The notes beneath the pieces were generated by a model. That model was not told where the DNA came from. It was given only the letters and a program-made list of their open reading frames with translations, and searched no databases. Position numbers and translations under genes: made by a program. Positions 4,713-64,000 of a stretch of 64,000 nt of DNA are shown one piece after another (within the stretch, counting starts at the first letter, position 1; each line of letters begins with the position of its first letter). Source of the DNA: a virus (Duplodnaviria; Heunggongvirae; Uroviricota; Caudoviricetes); the IMG/VR virus record IMGVR_UViG_3300031920_000341, positions 144,267 to 208,266 of that record; one strand, given 5' to 3'.

Positions 4713-4725
4713 AAATAAACATAAT

Positions 4726-4938
4726 ATGGCTAAGAAGAAATATGATACCGATGAACAAGCAGAAATAGCTATTGAATGTATAATAATCAAAGCAACTTCA
4801 CTAGATTTAGGTCAAGATCAAATTGATAATTATATAGAAGAAATTGAATTTATCTGTAACGAACATAAGTTTGGAAAAGATAAAGAAGATGAATATAAAG
4901 AAAGAGGTATTGAAAAACATAAATTACATTGGCAGTAA
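4726..4938 (+). CDS. hypothetical small acidic protein
   Basis: 70-aa ORF between fibre genes, overlapping next gene by 10 nt; no recognisable motif. Confidence 0.35.
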   Translation: MAKKKYDTDEQAEIAIECIIIKATSLDLGQDQIDNYIEEIEFICNEHKFGKDKEDEYKERGIEKHKLHWQ

Positions 4939-6335
4939 CAGCAACAGTAACGGCAACAAAAATTGATATAACAAGTACAGGGGGTGTAGAAGCAACTTGG
5001 GCAGAATGTGTAACAGCTATAAATACACATACCGCTGGTACTATTACTATGACTGGTTCGCCTAATGAATATACTATTACTGCAGCATCTTATCGTGAAT
5101 TAGAAATTAGTTCTGGTTGTATTGTTAGATTTGAAGAAGGTGATACTATAAATTGGATGTGGGATGCAACAGCAAGTACATATGTTGTTCTTGAGTTTGC
5201 AAATGGTAGTGTTACTACAATAGAACCTAATGTAACATTTGATTTAGGTTCAAATTCTCAACTTTATATGAGAGGTTATGTGTATATGCACGGTTCAGTT
5301 ACAGCAGAAGCTACACTTGGTAATGAAATTATATTCAAACATTATCGATCATGTTATATGCTTCCATATCAAGCTCAATCTTTTGATTATGTAAATTTTG
5401 AAGATCTTACATATGCTGGATATGCATTATATTTTAGTAATTATAGCAATCTAAGTTGGGCTCAATGTGATATGGATCATATTACTTTTAGTAGTACAGT
5501 TGGTAATGTTTATTTTGTTAATGGTGGTATGATACCAACAAATCTTAATTTAACTAATTGGTTTATGGATGGTGGTACCAATGGCTTACTAATATATAGT
5601 CATGCTGGAGTATATTTTGATACATGGACTATAAAAAATACATCTGCCGCTCCGCTTGCTTATGGATCTGGTACTATTATTGGACCGTTATTTTATAATA
5701 GTCCAGGTGTTCGTGTTAAAAACGATCATCAACCATATATTTATTTTAAAGATTGTTTATTTGAAGATAATGATGCTGGGGTTTATAATTATCTTACTCA
5801 ATATCATTCAGTAACAGTATTTGATAATTGTGAATTTAAAGGAACAGGTACACGTATATATGCTACTAACTATGCAACAATGTTTTTAATTAATCCTACA
5901 TATACTGGAGCAAATGCCAATCCTGTAACTTTTAGTTCTACTGGTAATGTATTTATTGCCGAACATCTTACATTAAATGTTACAGCTGAAGGTAGTGCTG
6001 TTGAAGGTGCAGTAATATCAATAATTCAATCAGAAGGCCATATTGTAATTAATGGTACAACAGATAGTAATGGAAAATTACTTAATCCATATGGTAAAGA
6101 GACAGTATTACCGATAAGTCAACAAACAGCAACATCAGTATTTGATTTATGGGCAGATAGTATTGCAGGCGGTAGATATTATACGATAAGCATATATAAA
6201 GAAGGTGTTGGTGCTTATACTGAAGATTTTATATTTACGGGTTCTAAAACAATAAATGCGGTTTTATATCCAGTAGTAGAAACCAATAATGATTATAAGA
6301 GTATAACAACAAAAATAATAGGCGGAATATCATGA
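4929..6335 (+). CDS. tail-associated protein with right-handed beta-helix-like repeats (possible tailspike/depolymerase)
   Basis: 468 aa with repetitive N/G/T-rich segments typical of parallel beta-helix proteins (NVYFVNGGMIPTNLNLTNWFMDGGTNGLLIYSHAGVYFD...). Sits between two fibre genes and is translationally coupled (ATGA overlap with next gene). Confidence 0.4.
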   Translation: MAVTATVTATKIDITSTGGVEATWAECVTAINTHTAGTITMTGSPNEYTITAASYRELEISSGCIVRFEEGDTINWMWDATASTYVVLEFANGSVTTIEPNVTFDLGSNSQLYMRGYVYMHGSVTAEATLGNEIIFKHYRSCYMLPYQAQSFDYVNFEDLTYAGYALYFSNYSNLSWAQCDMDHITFSSTVGNVYFVNGGMIPTNLNLTNWFMDGGTNGLLIYSHAGVYFDTWTIKNTSAAPLAYGSGTIIGPLFYNSPGVRVKNDHQPYIYFKDCLFEDNDAGVYNYLTQYHSVTVFDNCEFKGTGTRIYATNYATMFLINPTYTGANANPVTFSSTGNVFIAEHLTLNVTAEGSAVEGAVISIIQSEGHIVINGTTDSNGKLLNPYGKETVLPISQQTATSVFDLWADSIAGGRYYTISIYKEGVGAYTEDFIFTGSKTINAVLYPVVETNNDYKSITTKIIGGIS

Positions 6336-9300
6336 GTGTAACTACAGGAACAACCGAAAGAGATGCGATACTTCAGTTAGAATCATTAAATTTTTTAACT
6401 GGTGTAACTATTACAGAAATTGAAGATACACTTTCTACAAGTTCTGTTAAAGTTCCTACATCAAATGCAGTAACCGATGCTATTGCAGCCGGCGGCGGCG
6501 GTACAGTTAGTGGAACTGGCGTAGATAATCAAATTGCAGTATGGACAGGTACAAATACAATTGAAGGTACAACTGGATTTATATGGGATGGTACTGATTT
6601 AGGTATTATTCCTACATCAGGTAATGCCTCAATTACATTTGGTGCTGCAGATGATATGGTATTAACTTGGGTATCTGGAAGTGATATATTTACTATTACA
6701 AAAGATGGTGCTGCAGGAGTAGGCGAGTATTTATTGCTTTTATCAATAGGAACTTCATATTTTGGTACTATTTCCAATGATACATATGCATATTATGCAT
6801 ATATTAATACTAATTCAAATGCTACATATGGCAATATATTATTTTATGTTGGTACAAAACAAATTGCTTTATTTCGTAGTGAAGCTACAGGTACTACAAT
6901 AAAAATAGGTTATCCAAGTGAAGAACATATGTATATAGATTCTATATCTGGTGCAATATATTTTAAGAATTTAATAGCTGTTAATATGACTATCACTGAT
7001 AGTGGTATACAATTGGCAACTGGTTCAGTTGTAAATGCAATACTTAACGAAGATGATATGGCATCTGATTTAGATACAGTATTAGCAACGCAACAATCAA
7101 TTAAAGCATATGTAGATGCAGCAACAGCTGGTGTTGGCGTTGGAGATGTAACAGCTGGGACTCAATCTGAAGATCAAGTTGCAGTATGGGATTCAACAGC
7201 AAAGCAAATAGGAGGTACAAGTGGTTTAACATTTAATAGTACAACAAATATATTAACAACGGTTAACTTAACATTAACCAGTAATTTACGATTTAATACT
7301 GGTCAACAAGTAACTTCAATTGGAACATCGATAACAGATAGTGATTCAATACTTCCAACAGCTGGAGCGGTATATGATAAACTCAATATAACAAATAATT
7401 ATATTGTAACAGGAACAGGAACAGGTATACAAGGTGAAAGTAATTTACAATTTGACGGTACCACATTAGATATAACTGGTGATTTAGTAACATCTTCTAC
7501 AATAGAAGCTGGTAGTATTCCTAACATGGCAACTACAGCTGCATTATTTTTAGTTTCAAATTCAGGTGAAATTAATTATAGAACAAAAACTGAAATGCGT
7601 GAAGATCTTGATGTTGCTTGGCCAACAATAGAAGTTTCTATAGAAGCTGAACTTGATGCTGCGATTATTACATTAAATGGATATAATTTTGGTGATATAG
7701 TTATAACAGCTGATTTTACAATTGCTGGAAATAAATCATGGGATTTAACTGGTATAACAATTAGAGGTACACAAAAATCAATAACACTTAATGGGAATAC
7801 TATAACTGTTACTGCCGGAAGTCCAATATTCCAAGATATGACATTTTATGGTAAACCCGCAAATACTAGTTGGGGTGCAGGTTATGATACACAAAATTTA
7901 TTTATTTCAGCCGGAGCTCAACATTGGTTATTTAAAAATGTTGGATTTGCAAATACCGTTGGTAATAATTCATCAACTAATCCGGTAATTGATATAACAT
8001 CGCCACAAGATTGGCAAAGAATGACTTTTATTGATTGTACAGTATCTACTGAAGGAATTGCAACATATACTGGATTTAGTATTGATGAATCAGGAGGAAC
8101 AGTAGGTTATTTATTTATTAATGTAGAAGGACAAAAAATAGATTCATCATTAAAAACAACTTCTCTTTATTATGTAATTACCGGTACAGTGCCAACTAGT
8201 AAGAAATCTTTTTATTCAGATGGCACTGCGTATATTTCAGCTGCTAATACCTATACCGTTAATAATGAAATGACAACTAAACCAGCACAGGCTTCACCGG
8301 CTGCCGGTGATAGATTCTTAATTAGTGATGCTACAACACAACAGTTGAAATATGTGACATATAGTCAAGTTGGCGGTGCAGGAGGCGGTATGGCTGATCC
8401 TATGACTACTGTAGGAGATATTATTATAAGAGATTCAACTAATGCAACAGATAGATTAGCAGTAGGAACAACTGGACAGATATTAACAACAGATGGGACA
8501 GATATTTATTGGGGATCTGGTGCGGGCGCAGGTGATGTAACAGCCGGTACACAAACAGAGGATCAAATTGGAGTATGGACTTCAACAGCAAAAGAAATAG
8601 AAGGTTCCGCTTACTTTAAATTTGATGGTACTACTATGACACTTGGTGGCTTAACTTCAAGTCATGATTATACATTACATATTTATGCTGAAGATTATGA
8701 TGAAAGCTTTAACGATTACCGGGCAAAAATTATATTAGATTCTGCCGCACCTTGGATTGAACTTGATTCATCGACTACTGGTAGTAATACATATGAACAA
8801 GCTGCTGGTATATCAATGGGTGAATCTGGTGTAGGTTCAGCTGCAATGCATTTGGTTTATACTGGTGACGGTAAGGCTATTATTGGAATGGGTGCATTAG
8901 TAAATACAGCATCTGATTTAAGACCAACATATCAATCGATACAATTAATGTATACTAATGATGCAGTTGGTATAGGTAAAGCAGCAAATGCAAGTTATCA
9001 ATTGGGTGTTGGTGGAAATTTACAAATAGATACTGTTACTGCATTATCAAGTGCAGTTGCTTCAACAAAAATAGCTACATTATCTGCTACTGGTGAAGTT
9101 GAATCAGTAACTGCCACATTATTAAGAGATTATATTGGAGATTATTGGACTAATTCAAGTGCAGTTGTATTATTAGATACTGGGTATGATACACTTAGAT
9201 TAACTAGTACATATAAACTTGAATTTTTAGATACTAATATATTTATGCATGCAACCTCAACAGGTTATCTTTCAATTGATGCAGCAACAAGAATTACTTT

Positions 9301-10387
9301 AGATTTTGGTACTGAAACTTTAATTTATACAAATGGACAAATATATCCAACTGGAACTTCACTTCAGTTAGGTACAGATACAAATCCATTTGGTGAAATA
9401 CATACACATGAACCATTATATATTAAACGTGATGCAGGAATAAGTGGACCAATTTTAACAATAGAAGGTCAAATATCTACTGATACATATATTAATATTA
9501 ATAATACAGTGCAATCACAATTATGGCAAATTGGACAAAATACAAGTGATAATTTCTTTATTAAAGATGATACTGGCGGAACGACTCCTTTATATATTGA
9601 TAGTGGATCACCTACAAATTCATTACATTTAAAAAGTACAGAGGTTGTAATTAATGAAGATAGCTTATCTACTATTGATTTTAGAGTAGAAACTGATACT
9701 GCTTCAAATGCTTTATTTATTGATGCTAGCACGAATATTTTATATACTAACATAGATACTCTTTTAGGTTCAGGTAGTGGTGCTAATTATACTGAATTTT
9801 CGGGTTCTACTGGTAAACAATCAATGGAAGGTAATGCACGATCATCTTTTGCTATGTGGCATAATGCTGAAGCAATGCATGTGGATACAGCTGGAGGCGC
9901 ATCATTTACAACATTACTATCATCAAGGGTAGTTGCATTCTCTCCTCCTGCTGATAATACAACAGAAGGATATATATTAACTAGTTTTGTATTACCTTAT
10001 AATAAAAAGGGATATTCAACAAATGAATTTTCATGGTGGGCTCATATGGTTGTTGATAATGCTACAGGAAATGATATACAATGGAAAGTTAGTTATTTAA
10101 TACTTCAACCCGATGATGTTTATAGTGCATTTACGTCATTTACTGATTTATTAGGAACACAAACTGTGGCAAATAGTACAAATGATAGACTATTAGTTGC
10201 CGGCGGTGGTTTTTTTGCGGGATCTAATATACCACCTGGCTCACGTTTAGTTATTAAATTTAGTAGATATGATAATAGAGCAACTGGTTTAACCGATAGT
10301 TATGCAGGTACGGCATATGTATTGGGGCTTGGTATACGATATAATACAGATCAACTAGGTGGAACATATAATACATGGGCATCATAA
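6332..10387 (+). CDS. giant tail fibre protein (1351 aa), modular paralog of 360-4712
   Basis: Shares repeat modules with the upstream fibre (ILNEDDMASDLDTVLATQQSIKAYVDAATAG; SDSILPTAGAVYDKLN; VDNQIAVWTGTNTIEGTTGFIWDGTDL). Internal duplicate GDVTAGTQSEDQVAVWDSTAKQIGGTSG / GDVTAGTQTEDQIGVWTSTAKEIEGSAY. Confidence 0.75.
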   Translation: MSVTTGTTERDAILQLESLNFLTGVTITEIEDTLSTSSVKVPTSNAVTDAIAAGGGGTVSGTGVDNQIAVWTGTNTIEGTTGFIWDGTDLGIIPTSGNASITFGAADDMVLTWVSGSDIFTITKDGAAGVGEYLLLLSIGTSYFGTISNDTYAYYAYINTNSNATYGNILFYVGTKQIALFRSEATGTTIKIGYPSEEHMYIDSISGAIYFKNLIAVNMTITDSGIQLATGSVVNAILNEDDMASDLDTVLATQQSIKAYVDAATAGVGVGDVTAGTQSEDQVAVWDSTAKQIGGTSGLTFNSTTNILTTVNLTLTSNLRFNTGQQVTSIGTSITDSDSILPTAGAVYDKLNITNNYIVTGTGTGIQGESNLQFDGTTLDITGDLVTSSTIEAGSIPNMATTAALFLVSNSGEINYRTKTEMREDLDVAWPTIEVSIEAELDAAIITLNGYNFGDIVITADFTIAGNKSWDLTGITIRGTQKSITLNGNTITVTAGSPIFQDMTFYGKPANTSWGAGYDTQNLFISAGAQHWLFKNVGFANTVGNNSSTNPVIDITSPQDWQRMTFIDCTVSTEGIATYTGFSIDESGGTVGYLFINVEGQKIDSSLKTTSLYYVITGTVPTSKKSFYSDGTAYISAANTYTVNNEMTTKPAQASPAAGDRFLISDATTQQLKYVTYSQVGGAGGGMADPMTTVGDIIIRDSTNATDRLAVGTTGQILTTDGTDIYWGSGAGAGDVTAGTQTEDQIGVWTSTAKEIEGSAYFKFDGTTMTLGGLTSSHDYTLHIYAEDYDESFNDYRAKIILDSAAPWIELDSSTTGSNTYEQAAGISMGESGVGSAAMHLVYTGDGKAIIGMGALVNTASDLRPTYQSIQLMYTNDAVGIGKAANASYQLGVGGNLQIDTVTALSSAVASTKIATLSATGEVESVTATLLRDYIGDYWTNSSAVVLLDTGYDTLRLTSTYKLEFLDTNIFMHATSTGYLSIDAATRITLDFGTETLIYTNGQIYPTGTSLQLGTDTNPFGEIHTHEPLYIKRDAGISGPILTIEGQISTDTYININNTVQSQLWQIGQNTSDNFFIKDDTGGTTPLYIDSGSPTNSLHLKSTEVVINEDSLSTIDFRVETDTASNALFIDASTNILYTNIDTLLGSGSGANYTEFSGSTGKQSMEGNARSSFAMWHNAEAMHVDTAGGASFTTLLSSRVVAFSPPADNTTEGYILTSFVLPYNKKGYSTNEFSWWAHMVVDNATGNDIQWKVSYLILQPDDVYSAFTSFTDLLGTQTVANSTNDRLLVAGGGFFAGSNIPPGSRLVIKFSRYDNRATGLTDSYAGTAYVLGLGIRYNTDQLGGTYNTWAS

Positions 10388-18946: not shown

Positions 18947-21900
18947 ATGGCAGATTACAGCAAAGAATTATATAGTAAACTATCAAATATTGAGAATCTA
19001 ATGCTCAATTCTGTTAAGGTTTTGCTTGAGGAAAGCGAGAAACAAACCAATGCACTAATTTCAATAACAGATATATTAAGACAAACAAATGAAAAACCAA
19101 CTGAACCTGATGCAACTAAGACATCAGAGGGTGCTGTTGGTTCATTAAAGAATTTATTTACTGATGCATTCACAGAAGGATTCAAAACTTTTGTAGATAT
19201 ACTTCCAGATTTTTTTAAGGGTATAAATGAATTTAGTTCAGCCGATACTGAAGAGTTTACTAAATTTATATCTGACATGAATAAAGCACTTACTTTAGAT
19301 GGTAAATATGATGATCCAAAAAAGATGGGTAAATTTTATAAAGCTGTTGGTGAAACATATGAATTACTCAGTACATCAATAGAAAATTTTTCTCGTGGTT
19401 TAATATTTTTTGCTAAAGCAGAGAAACTAAATGCACCGAAAAATTTTATTAAATTTACTGAAAAATTTTTCGATAAGAAATTTCTTAAAAAACTTGATCC
19501 AAAGAAAGCAAGAAAGGCAGGGTTGGCATATACAGCAATGGGTAATGGTATACTTAGATTTGCAATATCATTGGCTATATCTACGCCATTATTAATAATT
19601 GGATTACCAGCTTTGGCTATTGCATTACCAGTTATGATGGGACTTACTGCTTATTTTACTTGGTTGGGAAAATTTAATAAGGGTATAAAACGCGGTGCAC
19701 GTGCAATGAGAGATATGGGGATTGGAATGATGGCTTTTACTGCATCATTAGCTATGATGCGTTACGTACGTCCCGAGGACCTTGTATTAGCATTAGGAGT
19801 TATTGCCTTGTTTACTGTACTAGTTGGTGCAATAATGCTGCTAAATAAGTTTACTGGTGGTAAAATGAAAGACAGTGCAAAAATGATGATTGCCGCTGGT
19901 ATAGGTTTAGCAACATTTGCTGGTGCAATAATGTTAATGCAATTTATTCCAGAAGGATCTATTAGTACCTCATTTAAAGTAATTGGAATATTTGTTTTAT
20001 TTATGGGGGCAATGATGTTAATATCTAAACTCGGTAAAGGTAAAATGAAAGATAATGCTAAAGCATTATTAATGGCAACAGTATCTATAGGTATATTAGC
20101 TGGAGCTATTATGTTATATAAATTTGTTGATACAGAAGATCTGATAAAAGCAGGATTATCAATAACAGTATTGAGTTTAGTATTATTTGTATTAAGTAAA
20201 CAAAAAAATGTTAAAAAATCAGCAGCTGCTTTATTAATTACATCAATATCACTTGGTATACTTGCTTATACTATACAAATGTTTGAGGATGTAGAATATA
20301 GTCAAATTTTTAAAGCTGGTGTAGCATTAGCTGTAATAGGACTTGCCATGAGAACTATTGGAAAAGGTTCAACGAAAATCCTCAAAGGTACATTGGCATT
20401 AACTGCTGTTAGTGCATCATTATATGTTTTAGGTTTAAGTATTAGAGAATGGAAGAAACAAAATATTGGTTGGGAAGATATAGGTATAATTGGTGCAACA
20501 GTAGCTATGTTAGGTGTAATATATTTCATAGCTGGAAAAGCTTGGACTTCAATTCTTAAAGGATCATTAGCAATGGCAGCTGTTGGTGCTTCAATGTGGG
20601 TCATTGGTTGGGGAATTAGTGAATGGAAGAAACAAGGTTTAGAATGGGAAGATATAGCAATAATTGGTGCAACTGTTGTTGGTCTTGGTGTAGCATATGC
20701 AATAGCAGGACTAGCAATTGCTCCAATATTATTAGGATCATTAGCAATGACTGCCGTAGGAGCATCAATGTGGGTTATTGGCTGGGGAATTAGCAAATGG
20801 AAGAAACAAGGTTTAGAATGGGAAGATGTGGGTATAATCGGTGCAACAGTAGCTATGTTAGGTGTAGAATATGCGATAGCAGGATTAGCAATTGTTCCAA
20901 TAGCATTAGGTGCATTGGCAATGGCAGCAATAGGCGTATCAATGTGGGTACTTGGTTGGGGAATTAATAAATGGAACTCACATGAATTAGATATGGAAGA
21001 TGTAGGTGTAATTGGCGCAACAGTAGCTATGCTAGGTGTAGAATATGCGATAGCAGGATTAGCAATTATTCCAATAGCGGCTGGAGCAGTAGCAATGGCA
21101 CTTGCTGGAGCATCATTGTGGGTTGTTGGTTGGGGATTAGGTAAATTTCTTGAAGCAGCCGGAGGTTGGGACGAAGATGATAGTAAGAGTTTAGAATTAG
21201 CAATGCTTAGTATAAAAGCCGCATTTGGCGGTGGAGGTGGTTTATTATCATCATTATGGGCAACAGCTACTGGTGTTGTTGATACAGTTGCAATTGCAGC
21301 AAATGCAGCAGGTATTTTAATAGGCGCTGCAACATTATATGAAGTATCTGATAGTTTAAAAGAAATTAAAACATTAAACTGGACAGAAGAAGATAGTTTA
21401 TCAATAGAAATGGCTGTTGCTACCTTAAAATCAGCATTTGGCGGAGGACAAAGTTTCCTTAAGAGTATGGGTAATTTTGTTAGTGGTGTTATTGATACAG
21501 GATCAGCAGCAACACAAATGAATACATTAGAAAGATCAGCTGAATCATTAGTAACAATAAAAGAAAGTTTAGAAAGAGCACGTGGATTAAACTGGACCGA
21601 AAAGGATAGTAAATCAGTAGAATTAGCTGTAGCTTCAGTTAAAGCTGTTTTCGGTGGTGGTAAAGGTATAACTGGTGCTATAGGTAATTTTATTGTTAGT
21701 AGTCTGGATAAAAAAACCGCTAAAAACGAATTTGAATCTTTAAGAGGTACTGGTGATGAAATAATGCAATTAGTTGAAATAATGGGTAGTATTCAGGATT
21801 TACAAAAAAGTAAATTTACAATTGAAGATTCACAAAGATACCTTACTGGTGTAGTAAAAGCATTCACTGGTCCATTTGATGGTGGAAAATTAAAAGCACG

Positions 21901-22384
21901 TGATGCTGAAACTATTACTGGTTCTTACCGTAAAATGATAGAGGACGTTGTTAAGTTAGCTAAGCATGAAAGTAAACTTGGCAAAGTCGCAAGTCATATG
22001 GAAAGCATAAGTAACTCCATGATTGATGTGGTTAGTGCGTTTGATAAATTATCTAGTGATAAGTTAACAAGAAGCAAAGAATTCTTTGATTCACTTGTTG
22101 CAATGGAAAAGATTAATGCCGATACATTTAAGGCAAAATTAGATTCTACAAAGGAACTTGTACAAAGCCTAGAGACAGCTAGTAATAGTAATCCGGTTGT
22201 AGCATCTAATGCGGCACAAAATGATGAAACATCTAAACGTATTGAAATATTAGAAAATGGACTTACTATAATGCAAGAAATGATGGCTGCGATACATGGA
22301 ACATTGGAAACCATTAGTACTACATTACAAAGCAATACGCTTAAGGTTGACGTTGTAAGCATGGATCAGGATATAAATTTATAA
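18947..22384 (+). CDS. tape measure protein (probable)
   Basis: 1145 aa with N- and C-terminal coiled-coil segments, a central series of hydrophobic Gly/Ala-rich helix repeats (4 exact-period 58-aa repeats ...EWKKQGLEWEDIAIIGATV...GASMWVIGWGIS...) and a second repeat family (NWTEEDSLSIEMAVATLKSAFGGG x3). Architecture typical of tape measure proteins. Confidence 0.55.
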   Translation: MADYSKELYSKLSNIENLMLNSVKVLLEESEKQTNALISITDILRQTNEKPTEPDATKTSEGAVGSLKNLFTDAFTEGFKTFVDILPDFFKGINEFSSADTEEFTKFISDMNKALTLDGKYDDPKKMGKFYKAVGETYELLSTSIENFSRGLIFFAKAEKLNAPKNFIKFTEKFFDKKFLKKLDPKKARKAGLAYTAMGNGILRFAISLAISTPLLIIGLPALAIALPVMMGLTAYFTWLGKFNKGIKRGARAMRDMGIGMMAFTASLAMMRYVRPEDLVLALGVIALFTVLVGAIMLLNKFTGGKMKDSAKMMIAAGIGLATFAGAIMLMQFIPEGSISTSFKVIGIFVLFMGAMMLISKLGKGKMKDNAKALLMATVSIGILAGAIMLYKFVDTEDLIKAGLSITVLSLVLFVLSKQKNVKKSAAALLITSISLGILAYTIQMFEDVEYSQIFKAGVALAVIGLAMRTIGKGSTKILKGTLALTAVSASLYVLGLSIREWKKQNIGWEDIGIIGATVAMLGVIYFIAGKAWTSILKGSLAMAAVGASMWVIGWGISEWKKQGLEWEDIAIIGATVVGLGVAYAIAGLAIAPILLGSLAMTAVGASMWVIGWGISKWKKQGLEWEDVGIIGATVAMLGVEYAIAGLAIVPIALGALAMAAIGVSMWVLGWGINKWNSHELDMEDVGVIGATVAMLGVEYAIAGLAIIPIAAGAVAMALAGASLWVVGWGLGKFLEAAGGWDEDDSKSLELAMLSIKAAFGGGGGLLSSLWATATGVVDTVAIAANAAGILIGAATLYEVSDSLKEIKTLNWTEEDSLSIEMAVATLKSAFGGGQSFLKSMGNFVSGVIDTGSAATQMNTLERSAESLVTIKESLERARGLNWTEKDSKSVELAVASVKAVFGGGKGITGAIGNFIVSSLDKKTAKNEFESLRGTGDEIMQLVEIMGSIQDLQKSKFTIEDSQRYLTGVVKAFTGPFDGGKLKARDAETITGSYRKMIEDVVKLAKHESKLGKVASHMESISNSMIDVVSAFDKLSSDKLTRSKEFFDSLVAMEKINADTFKAKLDSTKELVQSLETASNSNPVVASNAAQNDETSKRIEILENGLTIMQEMMAAIHGTLETISTTLQSNTLKVDVVSMDQDINL
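20450..21145 (+). repeat. 4 x 174-bp in-frame tandem repeat inside tape measure gene
   Basis: Units begin TGGAAGAAACAA at 20450, 20624, 20798 and TGGAACTCACAT at 20972; exact 174-bp period, ~80% identity; each encodes a 58-aa hydrophobic module. Confidence 0.8.
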
Positions 22385-49525: not shown

Positions 49526-50179
49526 ATGATTACGAAACAGAAAAGTAATATAAATAACAAAAAGCATTATTACTATATGTCTAAGATATTCCAGCTCCCA
49601 TTATTTGAAAGCTATGCGCCAAAAGTATTATTAATTGTAGATGTACAAAAACCATTTAAAGAATTCTTTCCATGTGAATATCTTAAAAAATTAAAATGGT
49701 ATGCTGGACAGTTTGAAACAGTATATCAAATCTGGGACGAAACTGAGGCAGAAGCACCTAGTTATCAATTTCATAATGAAGTACAAACAATAGTGAAACA
49801 ATACGGTGGAGACGTTGATGAATCTGATATGGAAAATATGACAGATGAATCAGCAGTAATTTTTAAACAAGAAGAATATGATTATAATACTAAGTTTGAT
49901 TTAAAAGATGGTGGTGCAATATATTATATTGGAAATGGCGGTGAAGGACCAGGTCATGAATGGTTTAGAGTATCAAAAGAATATATAGAATTTCTTAATG
50001 AATTAAAAAGACTTAATGCAGAAATCATATTGGTTGGCGGCGGTAAATTTGAATGTATATATGATGTTGAAATATCATTACTTGATGCTGATATAACTTT
50101 TAATTATAACGATCAATTAGTATACAATGCGAATAGTGGTTGTGATCAAAATCAGGATGAAGAAATTATTCAGGATTAA
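49526..50179 (+). CDS. hypothetical protein
   Basis: 217 aa. Confidence 0.35.
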   Translation: MITKQKSNINNKKHYYYMSKIFQLPLFESYAPKVLLIVDVQKPFKEFFPCEYLKKLKWYAGQFETVYQIWDETEAEAPSYQFHNEVQTIVKQYGGDVDESDMENMTDESAVIFKQEEYDYNTKFDLKDGGAIYYIGNGGEGPGHEWFRVSKEYIEFLNELKRLNAEIILVGGGKFECIYDVEISLLDADITFNYNDQLVYNANSGCDQNQDEEIIQD

Positions 50180-59946: not shown

Positions 59947-60023
59947 CGAGGTATTGGGGAGCCAGGCCACCCCGCTTGCTTTGGGAGCAAGAGAACTCGT
60001 AAGTTCGAATCTTACTACCTCGA
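59947..60023 (+). tRNA. tRNA-Pro (anticodon TGG)
   Basis: Perfect acceptor CGAGGTA/TACCTCG, D arm GGGG-(10 nt)-CCCC, anticodon stem CTTGC/GCAAG with loop TTTGGGA, 7-nt variable region, T arm GTAAG-TTCGAAT-CTTAC. Confidence 0.7.
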
Positions 60024-60064
60024 CTTAATAATTAAAACGATCTTTGACGTCTTGAAAGAAAAAC

Positions 60065-60136
60065 GCCGGTGTAGCTCAGTGGTCGAGCGGAACGCTGTTA
60101 ACGTTAGGGTCGGGAGTTCGAATCTCTCCACCGGCG
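60065..60136 (+). tRNA. tRNA-Asn (anticodon GTT)
   Basis: Perfect acceptor GCCGGTG/CACCGGC, D arm GCTC-AGTGGTC-GAGC, anticodon loop CTGTTAA, T arm GGGAG-TTCGAAT-CTCTC. Confidence 0.8.
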
Positions 60137-60151
60137 CAATACAATTTAAAT

Positions 60152-60234
60152 GCCTCCTTGGCTCAGTGGTCGACAGCGCCTGCCTTGTAAGCAGGATTCT
60201 TAGGAACGCGTAGGTTCGAATCCTACAGGAGGCT
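60152..60234 (+). tRNA. type-II (long variable arm) tRNA with anticodon TGT (nominally Thr; Ser-like body)
   Basis: Perfect acceptor GCCTCCT/AGGAGGC, Ser-like D arm GCT-CAGTGGTCGAC-AGC, perfect anticodon stem CCTGC/GCAGG with loop CTTGTAA, 14-nt variable arm ATTCTTAGGAACGC, T arm GTAGG-TTCGAAT-CCTAC, discriminator U. Confidence 0.6.
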
Positions 60235-60442
60235 CACAAACCTTTAGTGTAGATTGATCGTCTTGCTATTGGGGCAATCTTTAGGGGTAGGAGACAACAG
60301 TATTGAATTCAGTTACTGAACGTATGGATTTCTGGTAAAACAAGAATGACAAAATTATGGACAGTACCGAGATTCACTTGATTTGGGAAGGAATCAGTAC
60401 AGTGTAAGTTTAAGGCTTACGTAGATTGCCAGCGCTAAAAAT

Positions 60443-60561
60443 GAAGGGGTAGCATTAGCTGGTTATGTTCAGGGACGTCTGATCACCCGGCTGGAAAGCA
60501 ACGCGAGTAGTACGCTTGCGCTTCTACGGAAGTGATGTTGGTTCGAGTCCGGCTCCCTTCA
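60443..60561 (+). ncRNA. 119-nt tRNA-like RNA with expanded central domain
   Basis: Acceptor GAAGGGG/TCCCTTC (extendable to 8 bp), D arm GCAT-TAGCTGGTT-ATGT, canonical T arm GTTGG-TTCGAGT-CCGGC. Between D and T arms lie ~67 nt forming at least two extra hairpins (GCAACGCG-AGUAGUA-CGCUUGC and CUUC-UACG-GAAG tetraloop); no standard 7-nt anticodon loop. Packed 5 nt upstream of tRNA-Lys. Confidence 0.4.
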
Positions 60562-60566
60562 CAAAT

Positions 60567-60640
60567 AGGCCCGTAGCTCAGTTGGTCAGAGCACCTGACT
60601 TTTAATCAGGGCGTCGAGGATTCGAATTCCTCCGGGCCTA
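60567..60640 (+). tRNA. tRNA-Lys (anticodon TTT)
   Basis: Perfect acceptor AGGCCCG/CGGGCCT, D arm GCTC-AGTTGGTCA-GAGC, anticodon stem CCTGA/TCAGG with loop CTTTTAA, T arm GAGGA-TTCGAAT-TCCTC. Confidence 0.85.
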
Positions 60641-60713
60641 CATGTTTTTATTTGTAAATCAGGTTCGATTATATTTTATTCGGCATAATTTAGATATATA
60701 AAAATAAAAGCAT

Positions 60714-61571
60714 ATGACATATACTGAAATATCTAAATTAGTAAAAAATGGTATAGAATACAATGATTTAGCTAATAAATTAAATATATCAATTGATGCA
60801 TTGTATAGTAGACTAAATAGACATGGTATTAAAAAACCAAAACAAAAAACTACAATAGATAAAATATGTTTAAATTGCGGTAAAAAATTTACGGTTAAAA
60901 TAAGTAGTGATAAAAAATATAATCATAAATTTTGCAATAAATCATGTTCTGCTACATATAATAATAAAAAAAGAGGTGCGCGATCAAAAGAAACAAAAGA
61001 AAAGATATCAAATTCATTAGCAAAGAATAATAAAATAATAAAAATATGTTTAAATTGCAGTAATGAATTTTTAACAAGAAATCATAAAAGAAAATTTTGT
61101 TCACGTACATGTTCAGATAAAGGAAGTAAAAAATTTGGTTGGATTAATATGCATAAGACAATGACATTTCAAAAATGGTCTGATATTAATAAAAAGGCAT
61201 ATGCTGAAGGTAGAAATTATGTAGCAGGAGGAACAACGAAATGGTATGATTATAAGAATATTAGAGTACAAGGAACTTATGAATTAAGAACATGTTATCT
61301 TTTAGATGAAATGAAAAGAATTTTTGTAATAAATGATTGGGAATATACAAATGATAGATTTAAATATTTAGATGTAGACAATAAGCAAAGAACATATTTA
61401 GTTGATTTTAAAATTTTTAATACAGATGGAACTTTTTATTATTTAGAAATAAAAGGTTATGAAAAAGATAATGATAAACTAAAGTGGCAAGCAGTACGTA
61501 ATAAAGGATATGAATTAATTGTTTGGTTTAATAAAGATATAATAAAAAATGAGAAAAAATATTTAAAATAA
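60714..61571 (+). CDS. zinc-ribbon protein with PD-(D/E)XK-like motif (homing-endonuclease-like), downstream of tRNA cluster
   Basis: Two CxxC...C(x)C zinc-ribbon units (CLNCGKKF...CNKSCS; CLNCSNEF...CSRTCSD) and C-terminal YLVDFKIFNTDGTFYYLEIKG resembling D...E.K; same architecture as 28437-29192. Confidence 0.35.
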   Translation: MTYTEISKLVKNGIEYNDLANKLNISIDALYSRLNRHGIKKPKQKTTIDKICLNCGKKFTVKISSDKKYNHKFCNKSCSATYNNKKRGARSKETKEKISNSLAKNNKIIKICLNCSNEFLTRNHKRKFCSRTCSDKGSKKFGWINMHKTMTFQKWSDINKKAYAEGRNYVAGGTTKWYDYKNIRVQGTYELRTCYLLDEMKRIFVINDWEYTNDRFKYLDVDNKQRTYLVDFKIFNTDGTFYYLEIKGYEKDNDKLKWQAVRNKGYELIVWFNKDIIKNEKKYLK

Positions 61572-61908
61572 AATCGTTCATTGTGCCCAGTGGTTGGGAA
61601 CGGGGCTGTCACCCTCGTAAAATTAACGGATCGTAACCGTTATGGACGGCAACATCAACGAAGATAGAGCAGAGACTCTTGACCCATCGTTCTGACTGGA
61701 CGGTGGGAACAAGTACATGTCGTGTGTATGATTGTGATAAGTTGTTATTTTTGATAAATAATAAGGGTTAATATATTATACTTTAAATATAAAAATCTGG
61801 TTTAGGGTTTAATATATTGCTCATTAAATTGTAAGTCGGTACCTGGCGTGCGTTGTTGCCGTCGACCTTCCGTTGTAGTTCATAGTCCTTCCCAGCAACG
61901 GGAGGTGG

Positions 61909-61944
61909 TACTTTTCGGTTTCATTTATAAATTGTATATTTGTA
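61909..61944 (+). promoter_or_regulatory. bipartite promoter-like element, copy 8 (TACTTTTCGGTTTCA-N11-TATATTTGTA)
   Basis: Upstream of micro-ORF 61972, at the 3' edge of a GC-rich structured island. Confidence 0.55.
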
Positions 61945-61971
61945 TCATACGAATTTTAAATTAACTAAAAA

Positions 61972-62091
61972 ATGAAATATACTTTATGTGACGAGATTTT
62001 AAGTGAATTAGGTGAGATAGAAAGATATGAAGATGTAAAAAAAGCAATGATGAATATGTTCTTTTTTGGACAAGTAGATGGTAGTAAATAA
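61972..62091 (+). CDS. hypothetical micro-protein (39 aa)
   Basis: MKYTLCDEILSELGEIERYEDVKKAMMNMFFFGQVDGSK; first ATG 28 nt after promoter-like element 61909-61944. Confidence 0.25.
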   Translation: MKYTLCDEILSELGEIERYEDVKKAMMNMFFFGQVDGSK

Positions 62092-62175
62092 TTTTTTATT
62101 GTTTATAACGTTACGAGGCTATGACCAGTAGCGGATTACAAAGAGATAAATTTTCAAACTAAAAGAATTTTTGAT

Positions 62176-62460
62176 ATGAGTACAAAACTTAAAAATACCA
62201 CTAAACCAGCTATTGGTTATGAGCCTGTGTTAGCAGCTTTTAAAAATGGGCGGCTAAAAGAGTGGTTCTATTTATTGCAAAACGGACACCCATTTCTATT
62301 GAAAGAAGAGGCTGATATAATTTTAGAAACAAGATTGAATGACAAAGCAAGTAAATGGATGAATGACATTCAAATACAGGTGTTAGTTAAAATGAGAGTG
62401 AAAGCAATGTATAAAAAGAAATACCCTGATGCAAAACGATGGTCGTTAGCCCATTTTTAA
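62176..62460 (+). CDS. hypothetical protein
   Basis: 94 aa. Confidence 0.35.
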   Translation: MSTKLKNTTKPAIGYEPVLAAFKNGRLKEWFYLLQNGHPFLLKEEADIILETRLNDKASKWMNDIQIQVLVKMRVKAMYKKKYPDAKRWSLAHF

Positions 62461-62522
62461 TTGCTGCTAACGTTTAGTATATGGTTAGTTTTTAGGCGAT
62501 TTAATAACGAAAAATAAATAAG

Positions 62523-62738
62523 ATGAAAGTAGTAGAAGAATTTGAATACCAAGGATATATGAGTCAAGAAGCACAGAAGTTTTTTGAAGGTAAATTAATT
62601 ACAGAAGAACGTGATGGATGTGCCGTAGTTGGAAGTTTTGTAAAGTTAGCAAATGGAAATACTCATTTGCCTTCAAAAAGCGACAAGTTTAAAAAGTATG
62701 AAAATGGTAGTGTAACGGTGACTTCAATTTACCGATAA
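62523..62738 (+). CDS. hypothetical protein
   Basis: 71 aa. Confidence 0.3.
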   Translation: MKVVEEFEYQGYMSQEAQKFFEGKLITEERDGCAVVGSFVKLANGNTHLPSKSDKFKKYENGSVTVTSIYR

Positions 62739-62931
62739 TGTTAGCCTAAAAATTAACTATATACAGTGTTGTAAAATCGTTTTAATGTTTTACAACGCTT
62801 AGTATATGATTTCGGTGGCGATTGATTGCAGAACTTTTCACATACCGACAAACTAATAAAACTGCACAGTGGTTCAAAAAGACACGCTAACGCTACTGAA
62901 TTATATACATTGTTAGGGTGCGTTTTTAATT

Positions 62932-63120
62932 ATGAAACATTTTGATAAAAAAGTGACTGAAATTATTGATGGTGCTAAATGCCCATTACCATTAGAGGTA
63001 ATACCCAACTATATGGGCATAAACTTAGTATCTGTTGAAAGTATTGAATGGAGTGAATTTGATGATGGGCAGATTGATAAGCTGACAATTAATTTTATAC
63101 CCGAAGTAAAGGGTGAATAA
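62932..63120 (+). CDS. hypothetical protein
   Basis: 62 aa. Confidence 0.3.
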   Translation: MKHFDKKVTEIIDGAKCPLPLEVIPNYMGINLVSVESIEWSEFDDGQIDKLTINFIPEVKGE

Positions 63121-63188
63121 CTAAAGTTTAGGGTGTATTACGAGTTAATGCACCCTAACGTTTAGAATATGAATTTTAAAATTACGAC

Positions 63189-63329
63189 ATGATAGGAATA
63201 GTAACATTAATAGGAACATTAACAGTGATAATTATTCATAGTGGATTGAAAGATATTACTATTGAATTGAGGTACAAAAACAAGTTGATAGAAGAACAAA
63301 ATGAAATATTAAAAACAGAACGTAAGTAA
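63189..63329 (+). CDS. hypothetical small membrane protein (46 aa)
   Basis: MIGIVTLIGTLTVIIIHSG... hydrophobic N-terminus then charged coil; follows hairpin/motif element 63128-63171. Confidence 0.25.
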   Translation: MIGIVTLIGTLTVIIIHSGLKDITIELRYKNKLIEEQNEILKTERK

Positions 63330-63486
63330 TTTTATTATTTATATTCTGTGTTAGGCAATCGTTTTAATGTTGCCCTAACGGTTTGTATAAGATTTGAAGG
63401 GCAAACCACTAATGATAATTAAGAGAGTAAAAGGCTATATTGCCCTTTTAATTTTATACTTTGTTATAGCCAGTTAATTATTAGAT

Positions 63487-63630
63487 ATGAAAATACCACA
63501 TGTACCAAAACACGACAGAGCAAACATATACGGATACAATAACAAGAAATGGTGTAAGTGCGAAAAATGTAAGGCACTAAGAGAACGCCATAAAAAGATA
63601 TATAAATGCCGATGGTTTAATTGGCTATAA
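63487..63630 (+). CDS. hypothetical Cys-rich micro-protein (47 aa)
   Basis: MKIPHVPKHDRANIYGYNNKKWCKCEKCKALRERHKKIYKCRWFNWL; end coordinate approximate. Confidence 0.2.
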   Translation: MKIPHVPKHDRANIYGYNNKKWCKCEKCKALRERHKKIYKCRWFNWL

Positions 63631-63686
63631 CGGTTTAGGTATGGCAATGTAATTTTACGAAAAAATAAGTACTAAAAAATAATAAG

Positions 63687-63998
63687 ATGAATTTAGCAGA
63701 AAAATATAAAGAATTAACAGGTAAAGATGCTATATATTATGATGGCATAGGTGATGCTTTAAGTAGTGATTATATAGATTGGCTGGAACAGTGTGCAGTA
63801 AAATTATTTGCTATACCTGTTGTTATTAACTGGGTGGCTGTTAAAGATGAAGTGCCGCCCGAAAGAATACCAATTATTATTTGGGGAAAAGGAACTATAT
63901 ATGAAGAATCAGTTTATACTAAAAAACACGGTTTTGCTGGCAGATTTGATTACGATGTTACCCATTGGACACTAATGCCTTCGCCACCTTGTTTATAA
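63687..63998 (+). CDS. hypothetical protein
   Basis: 103 aa, stop codon at window end. Confidence 0.35.
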   Translation: MNLAEKYKELTGKDAIYYDGIGDALSSDYIDWLEQCAVKLFAIPVVINWVAVKDEVPPERIPIIIWGKGTIYEESVYTKKHGFAGRFDYDVTHWTLMPSPPCL

Positions 63999-64000
63999 CG

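Follow-up and report, generated by a model that had tools for sequence, protein, structure and literature searches.

The window, i.e. the whole 64,000-nt stretch of phage DNA analysed here, ends in a row of small genes. As outlined in the list below, seven (T/C)AAC|G cores divide positions 62110–63999 into six units of 221–368 nt, here called cassettes, with one ORF each. Every cassette has two inverted-repeat brackets, X and Y, with the single ORF in the loop of one of them. All ORFs of the array are sense to the folding strand, and no family match was obtained for the array cargo; the 103-aa ORF showed a sub-threshold match to DUF551, beginning 3' of the TGTT at 63818.

61935..61942, + strand: candidate −7 box TATATTTG, 30 nt ahead of the first ORF, matching the Bacteroidota consensus
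61972–62091, + strand: first ORF (39 aa), preceding J0
62100..62110, + strand: junction core J0, TGTTTATAAC|G, after the 39-aa ORF; same word at 63990–64000
62110..62471, + strand: cassette 1, TGTTAGCAGC...GCTGCTAACG (unconstrained MFE fold)
62116–62132/62209–62226, + strand: Y bracket of cassette 1
62176–62460, + strand: ORF of cassette 1 (94 aa), starting in the Y loop and running through bracket arms
62229–62251/62449–62471, + strand: X bracket of cassette 1
62468..62472, + strand: junction core J1, TAAC|G (first element of the first-pass annotation)
62472..62796, + strand: cassette 2 (fold, bracket scan, inverted-repeat search, model alignment)
62477–62497/62744–62764, + strand: Y bracket of cassette 2, 21 pairs with 2 G·T, enclosing the 71-aa ORF
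62523–62738, + strand: ORF of cassette 2 (71 aa), inside the Y loop
62767–62776/62788–62797, + strand: X bracket of cassette 2, empty loop TCGTTTTAATG (second noted hairpin)
62793..62797, + strand: junction core J2, CAAC|G (the noted variant element)
62797..63158, + strand: cassette 3 (fold, bracket scan, alignment, inverted-repeat search)
62802–62820/62891–62908, + strand: Y bracket of cassette 3, enclosing a conserved non-coding domain
62911–62920/63150–63159, + strand: X bracket of cassette 3, TGTTAGGGTG/CACCCTAACG, enclosing the 62-aa ORF
62932–63120, + strand: ORF of cassette 3 (62 aa), inside the X loop
63155..63159, + strand: junction core J3, TAAC|G; homology to viral contig L018 stops at 63160
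63159..63379, + strand: cassette 4 (bracket scan with a Y stem of 12; model alignment)
~63163–63174 with 63337–63348, + strand: weak Y bracket of cassette 4, GAATATGAAT/ATTTATATTC, enclosing the 46-aa ORF
63189–63329, + strand: ORF of cassette 4 (46 aa), inside the weak Y bracket
63349–63358/63370–63380, + strand: X bracket of cassette 4, empty loop TCGTTTTAATG (fourth noted hairpin)
63376..63380, + strand: junction core J4, TAAC|G
63380..63631, + strand: cassette 5 (inverted-repeat search, fold, bracket scan)
63385–63404/63440–63459, + strand: Y bracket of cassette 5, enclosing a non-coding domain
63461–63477/63617–63633, + strand: X bracket of cassette 5, 17 pairs, enclosing the 47-aa ORF
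63487–63630, + strand: ORF of cassette 5 (47 aa), ended by the core's own TAA
63628..63632, + strand: junction core J5, TAAC|G (fifth noted element)
63632..63999, + strand: cassette 6 (fold)
63637–63658/63798–63818, + strand: Y bracket of cassette 6
63687–63998, + strand: ORF of cassette 6 (103 aa), starting in the Y loop and continuing past it
63996..64000, + strand: junction core J6, TAAC|G

The stop codon of the 94-aa ORF (TAA, 62458–62460) lies just 5' of the 3' core of its X bracket. In cassette 3 a duplicate of the 5' arm makes a local hairpin (63128–63140/63146–63158), which is the third hairpin noted before; the Y stem of cassette 4 is short and absent from the MFE fold, and the X bracket of cassette 6 is degenerate. 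The array carries on past the window end, with GTTTGTGTAAGG... in the 24 nt known beyond 64000. An exact metagenome scan for the sequence beyond the window found nothing, and an exact-protein look-up for a longer sequence led to one 4.4-kb contig.

The first-pass annotation had described five intergenic elements with a conserved core, four of them preceded by hairpins and two of these with identical loops. All five cores are present where it had placed them (CTAACGTTTAGTATATG at 62467–62483, ACAACGCTTAGTATATG at 62793–62809, CTAACGTTTAGAATATG at 63155–63171, CTAACGGTTTGTATAAG at 63376–63392 and ATAACGGTTTAGGTATG at 63628–63644), and two further cores, TGTTTATAACG at 62100–62110 and 63990–64000, add to them. 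Likewise, all four inverted repeats exist, as seen in an inverted-repeat search or, for the one at 63351, in the model alignment, where its one-base bulge is visible; the loop TCGTTTTAATG indeed occurs at both 62777–62787 and 63359–63369. The two best of these hairpins, the second and the fourth, correspond to X brackets whose 11-nt loop is empty. For the first hairpin (62444–62478) the repeat exists, but an unconstrained fold prefers a distant partner over the local 7-nt arm, pairing 62449–62471 with 62229–62251 (21 pairs across 243 nt). No local hairpin was found at the fifth element (63628–63644), where GGCTATAACGG pairs with TGTTATAGCC at 63462, spanning the 47-aa ORF. The expected over-representation of the short motif was not borne out for the motif alone within the window; its exact copies all lie within the final 2 kb. 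A scan of viral contigs with the short motif gave single chance-like matches only, the 30 kb around a short match in a published 735-kb phage hold neither array nor recombinase, and a literature search with the loop sequence TCGTTTTAATG returned only a primer.

Homology of the window to three viral contigs (L018, L004, L142) begins near J2, and the region of cassette 3 (62785–63160) is 81% identical to L018. Furthermore, 62752–62935 shares 87.5% identity with an unrelated viral contig (L132), covering the non-coding part of cassette 3, and 31 nt are identical to Cellulophaga phage phi39:1.

Bracket anatomy and the folding strand

The X bracket consists of TGTT plus six variable nucleotides in its 5' arm and the six complementary nucleotides plus AACG in its 3' arm (12–22 pairs), the Y bracket of GTATA.../...TATAC (14–24 pairs). 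The loop of the bracket without the ORF is filled by the 11-nt TCGTTTTAATG or by a non-coding domain of ~70 nt. In X brackets the start codon lies ~5 nt 3' of the 5' arm and the stop codon within the 3' arm; some Y domains contain GNRA-closed hairpins. This anatomy is far above chance: the array holds 5 X and 2 Y brackets, compared to means of 0.2 and 0.015 in 200 dinucleotide shuffles, and no Y bracket was found on either strand of the remaining 62 kb of the window. The long-range brackets were also recovered by an unconstrained fold of the 2-kb array.

Across the related loci, perfect complementarity between TGTT+6 and a downstream 6+AACG was observed 139 times versus 2.8 expected at gaps of 101–300 nt, 43 times versus 4.0 at 301–600 nt and 41 times versus 5.1 at 601–1000 nt. 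In the reverse order (6+AACG, then TGTT+6) an excess was seen solely at gaps of 101–300 nt (18 versus 2.8 expected), which is the length of the non-coding body, with values near chance at longer gaps. For Y stems of at least 18 pairs, 251 pairs were counted versus ~1 expected. The arms of some cassettes are up to 1.5 kb apart, and identical bracket words enclose unrelated ORFs, methyltransferases among them.

A scan which fixed just the loop, AACG and TATA and left the stems unconstrained returned 78 viral loci, and in ~65 of these the stems are complementary yet different. This unfiltered scan is the fair test, since the 99% pairing in one alignment (A3) is biased by its pre-filter for ≥8/9 pairs; likewise, the E-values that structure model R2 gives for the two window hairpins follow by construction, its alignment having included both. 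Covariation, which the first-pass annotation had suggested looking for in aligned copies, is present. Together with the arm complementarity (the 139 cases above) and strand-specific wobble pairs it backs two earlier claims, i.e. that stem complementarity is under selection and that the conserved core is a recognition site.

The wobble pairs also reveal which strand folds. G·T/T·G pairs and A·C/C·A mismatches stand at 998:35 in Y brackets and at 678:34 in X brackets, and with wobble pairs exceeding A·C mismatches 20–28:1 it follows that one strand folds. In bacterial loci whose ORFs are antisense to the sites the wobble bias is the same (88:6), so it is the site, not the mRNA, to which the constraint is tied. 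Phage ORFs lie mostly on the folding strand, with 83 sense versus 5 antisense in X cassettes and 35 versus 1 in Y cassettes, and sites and genes are co-oriented in 126 of 142 cases. The stems therefore fold in the mRNA as well and may have a role in RNA.

Related arrays, their recombinase and breakpoints at the core

The same architecture was found in hundreds of cassettes, on several hundred public Bacteroidota-type phage contigs and on some bacterial contigs; the cassette system together with its own recombinase was seen in at least 233 viral contigs. Related arrays are accompanied by a 267-aa Xer/IntI-like tyrosine recombinase. Among the best 80 of 233 loci of the recombinase scan, which were the ones studied, 57 of 59 recombinase-fetched loci have arrays (at least two brackets, typically 5–25, within 3 kb upstream of the recombinase) immediately upstream and in the same orientation; within this same set brackets lie downstream in just 3 of 77 loci, and none were found upstream in the opposite orientation. 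For comparison, the recombinase was present in 0 of 119 control viral loci.

The related arrays end in a conserved ...YAAC|TATTATATA sequence, ~50–60 nt ahead of the start codon of the recombinase. The window stops before any such site, and no recombinase was seen in its 64 kb because the array runs off the end; the window is consequently linked to the recombinase through homology of the sites alone, from which we infer that its phage would carry the gene beyond the window end. Arrays and sites also occur in phages lacking a recombinase, namely X/Y arrays in Polaribacter phage P12002L and sites in Cellulophaga phage phi39:1.

Comparison of related arrays points to cassette movement. Two contigs whose recombinase genes are 87% identical (L335 and L348) carry blocks of 99.9–100% identity at different array positions, and these shared blocks stop exactly at TAAC(G), with unrelated sequence past it. 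More generally, the ends of blocks of at least 95% identity cluster at TAAC|G in this comparative analysis: 16 of 32 left and 12 of 27 right ends (59 in total) are no more than a few bases away from the core, and as a control 10 of 59 random points fell within 15 nt of it. The rearrangements seen are changes of position in direct orientation. A flank-based search for filled versus empty slots yielded two pairs only, and the recombinase-anchored set was more informative.

Gene swapping versus gene switching

In our view a large phage with a Bacteroidota-type host probably carries an integron-like array of gene cassettes, which begins with 62100–64000. Its hairpins and cores resemble integron-like recombination sites and therefore probably mark gene swapping, not gene switching; they are taken as DNA recombination sites because a recombinase adjoins the arrays, the junction to it is conserved and homology breaks at TAAC|G. 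Points that count against this reading are the recombinase-free window, the missing IntI insertion, phage ORFs on the folding strand and in Y loops, phages with sites only, and the negative IntI1 result with P12002L_attC1. (T/C)AAC|G is thereby best read as both recombination-site core and cassette boundary, at which recombination would take place. In a cassette excised as a circle, stacking of the two stems would produce a single long, imperfect hairpin whose internal loop holds the core; attC sites have this geometry, with AAC/GTT in the R box, a spacer that stays unpaired, a second stem and a variable end. The small Xer/IntI-like tyrosine recombinase, encoded directly after the arrays in related phages, would act on these cassettes by cutting, presumably within TAAC on the folded strand, which would lead to cassette excision, insertion and reordering. 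The array is probably transcribed as a single transcript from a host-type promoter at ~61935. No further + strand TAnnTTTG follows the box at 61935–61942 within the window, and this box may be the sole promoter of the array; it is a weak candidate, as TAnnTTTG shows no over-representation across the window (129 occurrences versus 116 expected).

It is unlikely that the brackets act in RNA only. According to such a reading, each cistron of a polycistronic early mRNA is closed by a long helix, which either is cut by a double-strand RNase, e.g. RNase III, or masks the start codon and so limits translation to nascent RNA, and cassette turnover is a by-product of ordinary recombination. The strong wobble bias towards one strand, which in phages is the coding strand, would fit, but the same bias is seen where ORFs are antisense to the sites; the co-orientation of sites and genes, the placement of start and stop codons in X brackets, the GNRA-closed hairpins and the 17–21-pair helices of the fold are also in line with it, whereas the strict recombinase association of fixed polarity, the conserved junction at the recombinase gene and the TAAC|G breakpoints without flanking homology are not. 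Rfam gave no match to the elements either: tRNAs only were found in the window at gathering score, and nothing credible between 61500 and 64000 at E up to 10, and a ribozyme, riboswitch or known sRNA was rejected on this ground.

Even less probable are regulatory cassettes that shuffle genes by homologous recombination between copies, in the manner of the PeSLs of T4-type phages, which combine a terminator hairpin with an early promoter (PMC2839356, PMC4122927). The two have in common conserved small intergenic elements among small accessory genes, serving as points of gene exchange; in the phage array these elements are better conserved than the genes themselves. PeSLs, however, are sigma-70-type promoters plus terminators acting via homologous recombination. 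In the phage array no TAnnTTTG box was found in the junctions (+ strand, 61943–64000), which speaks against a promoter there, a sigma-70 scan of the window was at chance, and none of the four hairpins was called in a terminator scan or has a T run. Furthermore, the stems covary and vary around a fixed loop, the breakpoints coincide with a core of 5 nt that is flanked on one side by unrelated sequence, and the arrays are linked to a dedicated recombinase.

Shufflon-like inversion, by which the inverted repeats would flip each ORF, is hardly tenable: inverted repeats flank every ORF, a tyrosine recombinase is close by in relatives and a few antisense ORFs lie inside brackets, but antisense phage cassettes amount to just 5 of 88 (X) and 1 of 36 (Y), the rearrangements kept their direct orientation and the variable arms differ among cassettes. 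No more plausible is the proposal of the first-pass annotation, based on intergenic hairpins with conserved loop and flank, that terminator/anti-terminator units or protein-bound operators regulate each gene, since the terminator and promoter signals are lacking as described, the hairpin arms are ends of brackets that span far longer distances in other cassettes, and the elements are shared by phages that differ widely and by bacterial chromosomes. From that proposal the notion of each small gene as a cassette is retained, and individual regulation is dropped.

Several other candidates were rejected. A CRISPR-repeat mimic (GTTG...CAAC) is countered by a genome scan without closely spaced repeat arrays and by stems that differ inside one phage, a leader peptide from the loop ATG by frames and stops that are not conserved, and a MITE by terminal repeats that covary rather than stay conserved. 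An attenuator with alternative pairings lost its basis, since the 'third hairpin' represents core pairing between adjacent cassettes.

Integrons have been described as devices of bacteria, and for phages the reports to date amount, to our knowledge, only to borrowed integron fragments and a small number of predicted attC clusters. We see about an even chance that Bacteroidota phages, including jumbo phages like that of the window, possess an integron analogue of their own, in which a short Xer-like recombinase lacking the IntI domain is combined with TAAC|TATTATATA as primary site and with two-stem 'dumbbell' cassettes folding on the coding strand. If so, the same stems would be both DNA recombination sites and mRNA enclosures of each cistron, and the system would be an engine by which phages shuffle small accessory genes (perhaps anti-defence genes) among themselves, with sites common to phage arrays and chromosomal immunity-gene arrays. 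Such a phage cassette system with its own recombinase would be new and would explain the exchange of small accessory genes across the phages of a major bacterial phylum. In practical terms, TAAC|G cores with paired brackets would offer a simple rule for real micro-genes, including the 46- and 47-aa ORFs, the cassettes a pool for searches for anti-defence functions, and the recombinase with its folded site a new pair to study; phage arrays would thereby be connected with the recombinase-associated immunity arrays of Bacteroidota.

Comparison with known systems

The closest comparison is with integrons, whose attC sites, attI and gene cassettes are reviewed in PMC8618304. As in integrons, most cassettes carry a single ORF, some lack one, and a tyrosine recombinase of the Xer/IntI branch flanks such arrays on one side. 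A candidate counterpart of attI is the conserved YAAC|TATTATATA junction beside the recombinase gene of related loci. The sites are of attC-type architecture: palindromic, imperfect hairpins whose R boxes carry conserved AAC/GTT triplets and which also comprise a spacer that stays unpaired, a second stem and a variable end. Each cassette begins with sequence complementary to the start of its own 3' site (62911/63150 and 63462/63623 in the window), and, judging from comparative evidence, the exchange point would lie in the AAC nearest the 5' end of the strand that folds. The order on the folding strand, i.e. array, putative primary site and a recombinase pointing away, would in our reading be the bottom-strand view of the integron order.

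The differences are as follows. With 267 aa and without the IntI-specific insertion, the recombinase of the related arrays is not an integron integrase in the strict sense, for which the additional IntI domain is diagnostic: it aligns to residues 37–180 and 259–308 of VchIntIA only, has 30 residues where IntI4 has 78 and scores 155 bits with the NCBIfam integron-integrase model, whose cut-off is 265. The cassette-specific complementarity comprises 12–22 pairs here versus ~7, the second long bracket can hold an ORF, and Y-loop ORFs are without integron counterpart. Phage ORFs lie on the folding strand, whereas those of integron cassettes are antisense to the recombined bottom strand; conserved wobble positions are found instead of the known extrahelical bases, and the carriers are phages, with some contigs exceeding 250 kb. 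With seven cores and no recombinase in 64 kb the window may hold a CALIN (at least two attC sites, no integrase nearby), but its array is cut by the window end.

No experimental work on the phage array system was found in the literature. According to the excerpted text of Qi et al. 2023 (PMC9892861), a sequence of P12002L was predicted as attC by an independent attC predictor, two sites were predicted in one phage of this host group, and P12002L_attC1 gave no verified recombinants with IntI1. As given in that excerpt, the P12002L_attC1 oligo (TGCTAACG-GCTAC-GGCTAAACGG-TCGTTTTAATG-CCGTTTTAGCC-AT-TGTTAGGC) is a member of the array-site family, identical in architecture and with the same 11-nt loop; the excerpt describes no cognate recombinase, primary site or double-bracket cassette.

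The second relative is rAID-1 (Ross et al. 2019, bioRxiv 10.1101/471110), in which a XerD-like recombinase of Bacteroidales is followed by co-oriented, low-GC small genes and whose intergenic repeats were called reminiscent of integrons. Two bacterial relatives of the phage arrays (L310 and L237) share this layout, and a CdiI-type immunity gene is part of the chromosomal array of a Formosa (L203). The window has no upstream recombinase and its cargo no family match, so that the rAID-1 layout is not found there. rAID-1 is chromosomal, has immunity genes as cargo and its genes run away from the recombinase, whereas the genes of the phage arrays run towards it.

The array and the phage that carries it

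The five motif cores, four inverted repeats and two identical loops described by the first-pass annotation at 62440-63690 were all found in place in the window sequence. Over-representation of the motif was not borne out, as the short core is not enriched in the window; its exact copies all lie within the last 2 kb. Two further cores were located at 62100-62110 and 63990-64000, and the resulting seven cores delimit six units within 62110-63999, each 221-368 nt long and holding one ORF. The units are built from two inverted repeats, denoted X bracket (TGTT + 6 nt.../...6 nt + AACG) and Y bracket (GTATA.../...TATAC). Five X and two Y brackets were observed in the array versus 0.2 and 0.015, respectively, in shuffles of the array, and no Y bracket occurs in the remainder of the window. 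Furthermore, the long-range bracket helices were recovered by an unconstrained fold of 61950-64024. The array runs off the end of the window, which stops inside it.

The large terminase encoded in the window shares 30-36% identity with its counterparts in Lak megaphages, Sphingomonas phage PAU and Tenacibaculum phage PTm1. With this kinship, 10 tRNA genes, a G+C content of ~30% and no close relative among the deposited phages searched, the window is part of a large phage, whose host is probably a member of the Bacteroidota. Almost all genes lie on the + strand. The following features were noted:

Features of the window
360-10387: ORFs of 1450 and 1351 aa, no PHROG match and no credible Pfam match
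18947-22384: 1145-aa ORF, no family match; near-identical segments at 20689, 20863 and 21037 (spacing 174 nt) suggest a tandem 58-aa repeat; window maximum for G+C content and GC skew
50053-50120: weak hairpin-model match (18.5 bits, E ~0.09) near the end of ORF 49526-50179, probably chance
59947-61650: tRNA cluster of five genes (Pro, Asn, Thr, Lys, Asp)
60714-61571: 285-aa HNH-endonuclease-like ORF between tRNA-Lys and tRNA-Asp
61575-61650: tRNA-Asp, called by ARAGORN, not by the Rfam tRNA model
~61651-61720 and ~61830-61915: G+C-rich, structured-looking stretches between tRNA-Asp and the candidate array promoter; no tRNA or Rfam call in 61651-61930
61887-61917: terminator-like hairpins ahead of the array
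62176-62460 and 63687-63998: ORFs of 94 and 103 aa, whose reading frames open in a Y loop and extend over bracket arms into the bracket that follows; in the 103-aa ORF a sub-threshold DUF551 match begins directly past the arm, as though an N-terminal extension had been added to an older cassette ORF

Related elements and the anatomy of a cassette

A scan of viral contigs in which only the loop, AACG and TATA were held constant returned 78 loci. About 65 of them exhibit the layout ...TATAnnnn-TGTT-[6 nt]-TCGTTTTAATG-[6 complementary nt]-AACG-nnnn-GTATA..., in combination with a wide variety of stems. Unrelated contigs, in which the flanking genes differ, match entire non-coding stretches of the window at 70-87% identity. 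Relatives include Cellulophaga phages phi39:1 and phi19:1 and Polaribacter phage P12002L. A genome scan gave at least 56 true copies; most lie on contigs of Bacteroidota, and one on the complete chromosome of Formosa sp. A9. No Rfam family matches the elements. In phi39:1 (L199, 888-975) the small terminase gene is directly preceded by a pair of successive hairpins that share the CGTTTTAATG loop; this 28.7-kb phage has no array and no annotated recombinase, and the hairpins are solitary sites. In four viral contigs (L127, L159, L183, L196) some hairpins combine an arm of one standard stem with an arm of another and are consequently non-complementary, as though two sites were fused inside the conserved loop.

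Consensus folding of the aligned 180-nt element that follows hairpin 2 yielded the hairpin and an 18-pair helix. The compensatory stem changes claimed initially were seen in 17 of the 29 pairs of this structure, next to fixed G.U positions. In the Formosa locus the two hairpin arms are separated by whole genes, and this split holds generally: for TGTT+6 and the 6+AACG that follows it 101-300 nt away, 139 cases of perfect complementarity were counted (expected 2.8), an excess extending to gaps of 1 kb. The reverse order exceeds chance only at body lengths of 101-300 nt (18 vs 2.8). The 'hairpin' of the first-pass annotation is an X bracket with only leader plus trailer in its loop.

X stems extend to 12-22 pairs, and 242 of ~330 carry T.G at position 1 and G.T at position 12. 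Their ORFs start a few bases past the 5' arm and stop (TAA) inside the 3' arm or the core itself. Y brackets begin with GTATA 3-4 nt past AACG, end with TATAC 0-2 nt ahead of the next TGTT and enclose a 60-150-nt non-coding domain or an ORF; Y stems of at least 18 pairs were observed 251 times (~1 expected). X and Y brackets alternate strictly. The detector tolerates one mismatch and no bulges; it thus overlooks a number of true stems, and X brackets arising by chance pass it at a rate of ~0.16 per kb. ORFs were called mechanically and locus orientation was taken from a sequence profile.

DNA methyltransferases are the commonest large cargo of X brackets (L123, L178, L129 and other viral loci), and several of their genes occur in the P12002L array. 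In the Formosa sp. A9 locus (L203), which adjoins an IS21 element, ORFs at 4380-6190 are antisense to the sites, a CdiI_3 immunity protein among them, and the Y domains hold hairpins with GCGA and GCAA tetraloops.

Recombinase and probable exchange of cassettes

Clustering of the larger proteins of the loci unveiled a 267-aa tyrosine recombinase, encoded immediately past the arrays. It is closest to XerA, XerC/D and integron integrases, scoring under their cut-offs, and is without the IntI insertion. When loci were fetched via this protein alone and the best 80 of 233 relatives kept, a co-oriented array was present in the 3 kb upstream of the gene in 57 of 59 cases; downstream arrays occurred in only 3 of 77. 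None of 119 control viral loci encodes the protein, and no recombinase was found within the 64 kb of the window, where the array is cut by the end. At the junction, the final core is followed by T-ATTATATATA, replacing G-nnn-GTATA, ~50-60 nt 5' of the recombinase start codon, which we read as a putative primary (attI-like) site.

Arrays adjoining recombinases 92% identical have almost nothing in common. Two loci, L335 and L348, whose recombinase genes are only 87% identical, have blocks of 960 and 1828 nt in common that are 99.9-100% identical, occupy different array positions and stop at TAAC(G), with unrelated sequence past them. Over all loci, blocks at least 95% identical end at a core in 16 of 32 cases on the left and 12 of 27 on the right. 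The most probable reading is an integron-like cassette array with attC-like sites; all functional readings of the arrays derive from sequence comparison.

Folding strand and comparison with known systems

Wobble pairs outnumber A.C mismatches by 998:35 in Y and by 678:34 in X brackets; consequently, a single strand is under selection to fold. As this is the coding strand in phages, a role of the brackets in RNA was the initial reading. However, in bacterial loci whose ORFs run antisense to the sites, it is the site that the bias follows (88:6), which argues against a purely mRNA role.

On the integron bottom strand a 5'-proximal AA|C is followed by the array, the primary site and a recombinase pointing away, and the phage array, viewed along its folding strand, would fit this geometry. 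In the literature covered, which includes only a minority of subscription journals, the phage system itself is not described. P12002L has X/Y arrays, and no recombinase was found in it. Qi et al. 2023 (PMC9892861) predicted attC sites in this phage; their attC1 oligo belongs to the present family, has an identical loop and gave no verified recombinants with IntI1. Ross et al. 2019 (bioRxiv 10.1101/471110) described rAID-1 arrays, in which a XerD-like recombinase is combined with integron-like repeats. This layout is fitted by the bacterial relatives; in loci L310 and L237 the recombinase is followed by co-oriented ORFs, and a CdiI-type immunity gene is among the cargo of the Formosa array (L203).
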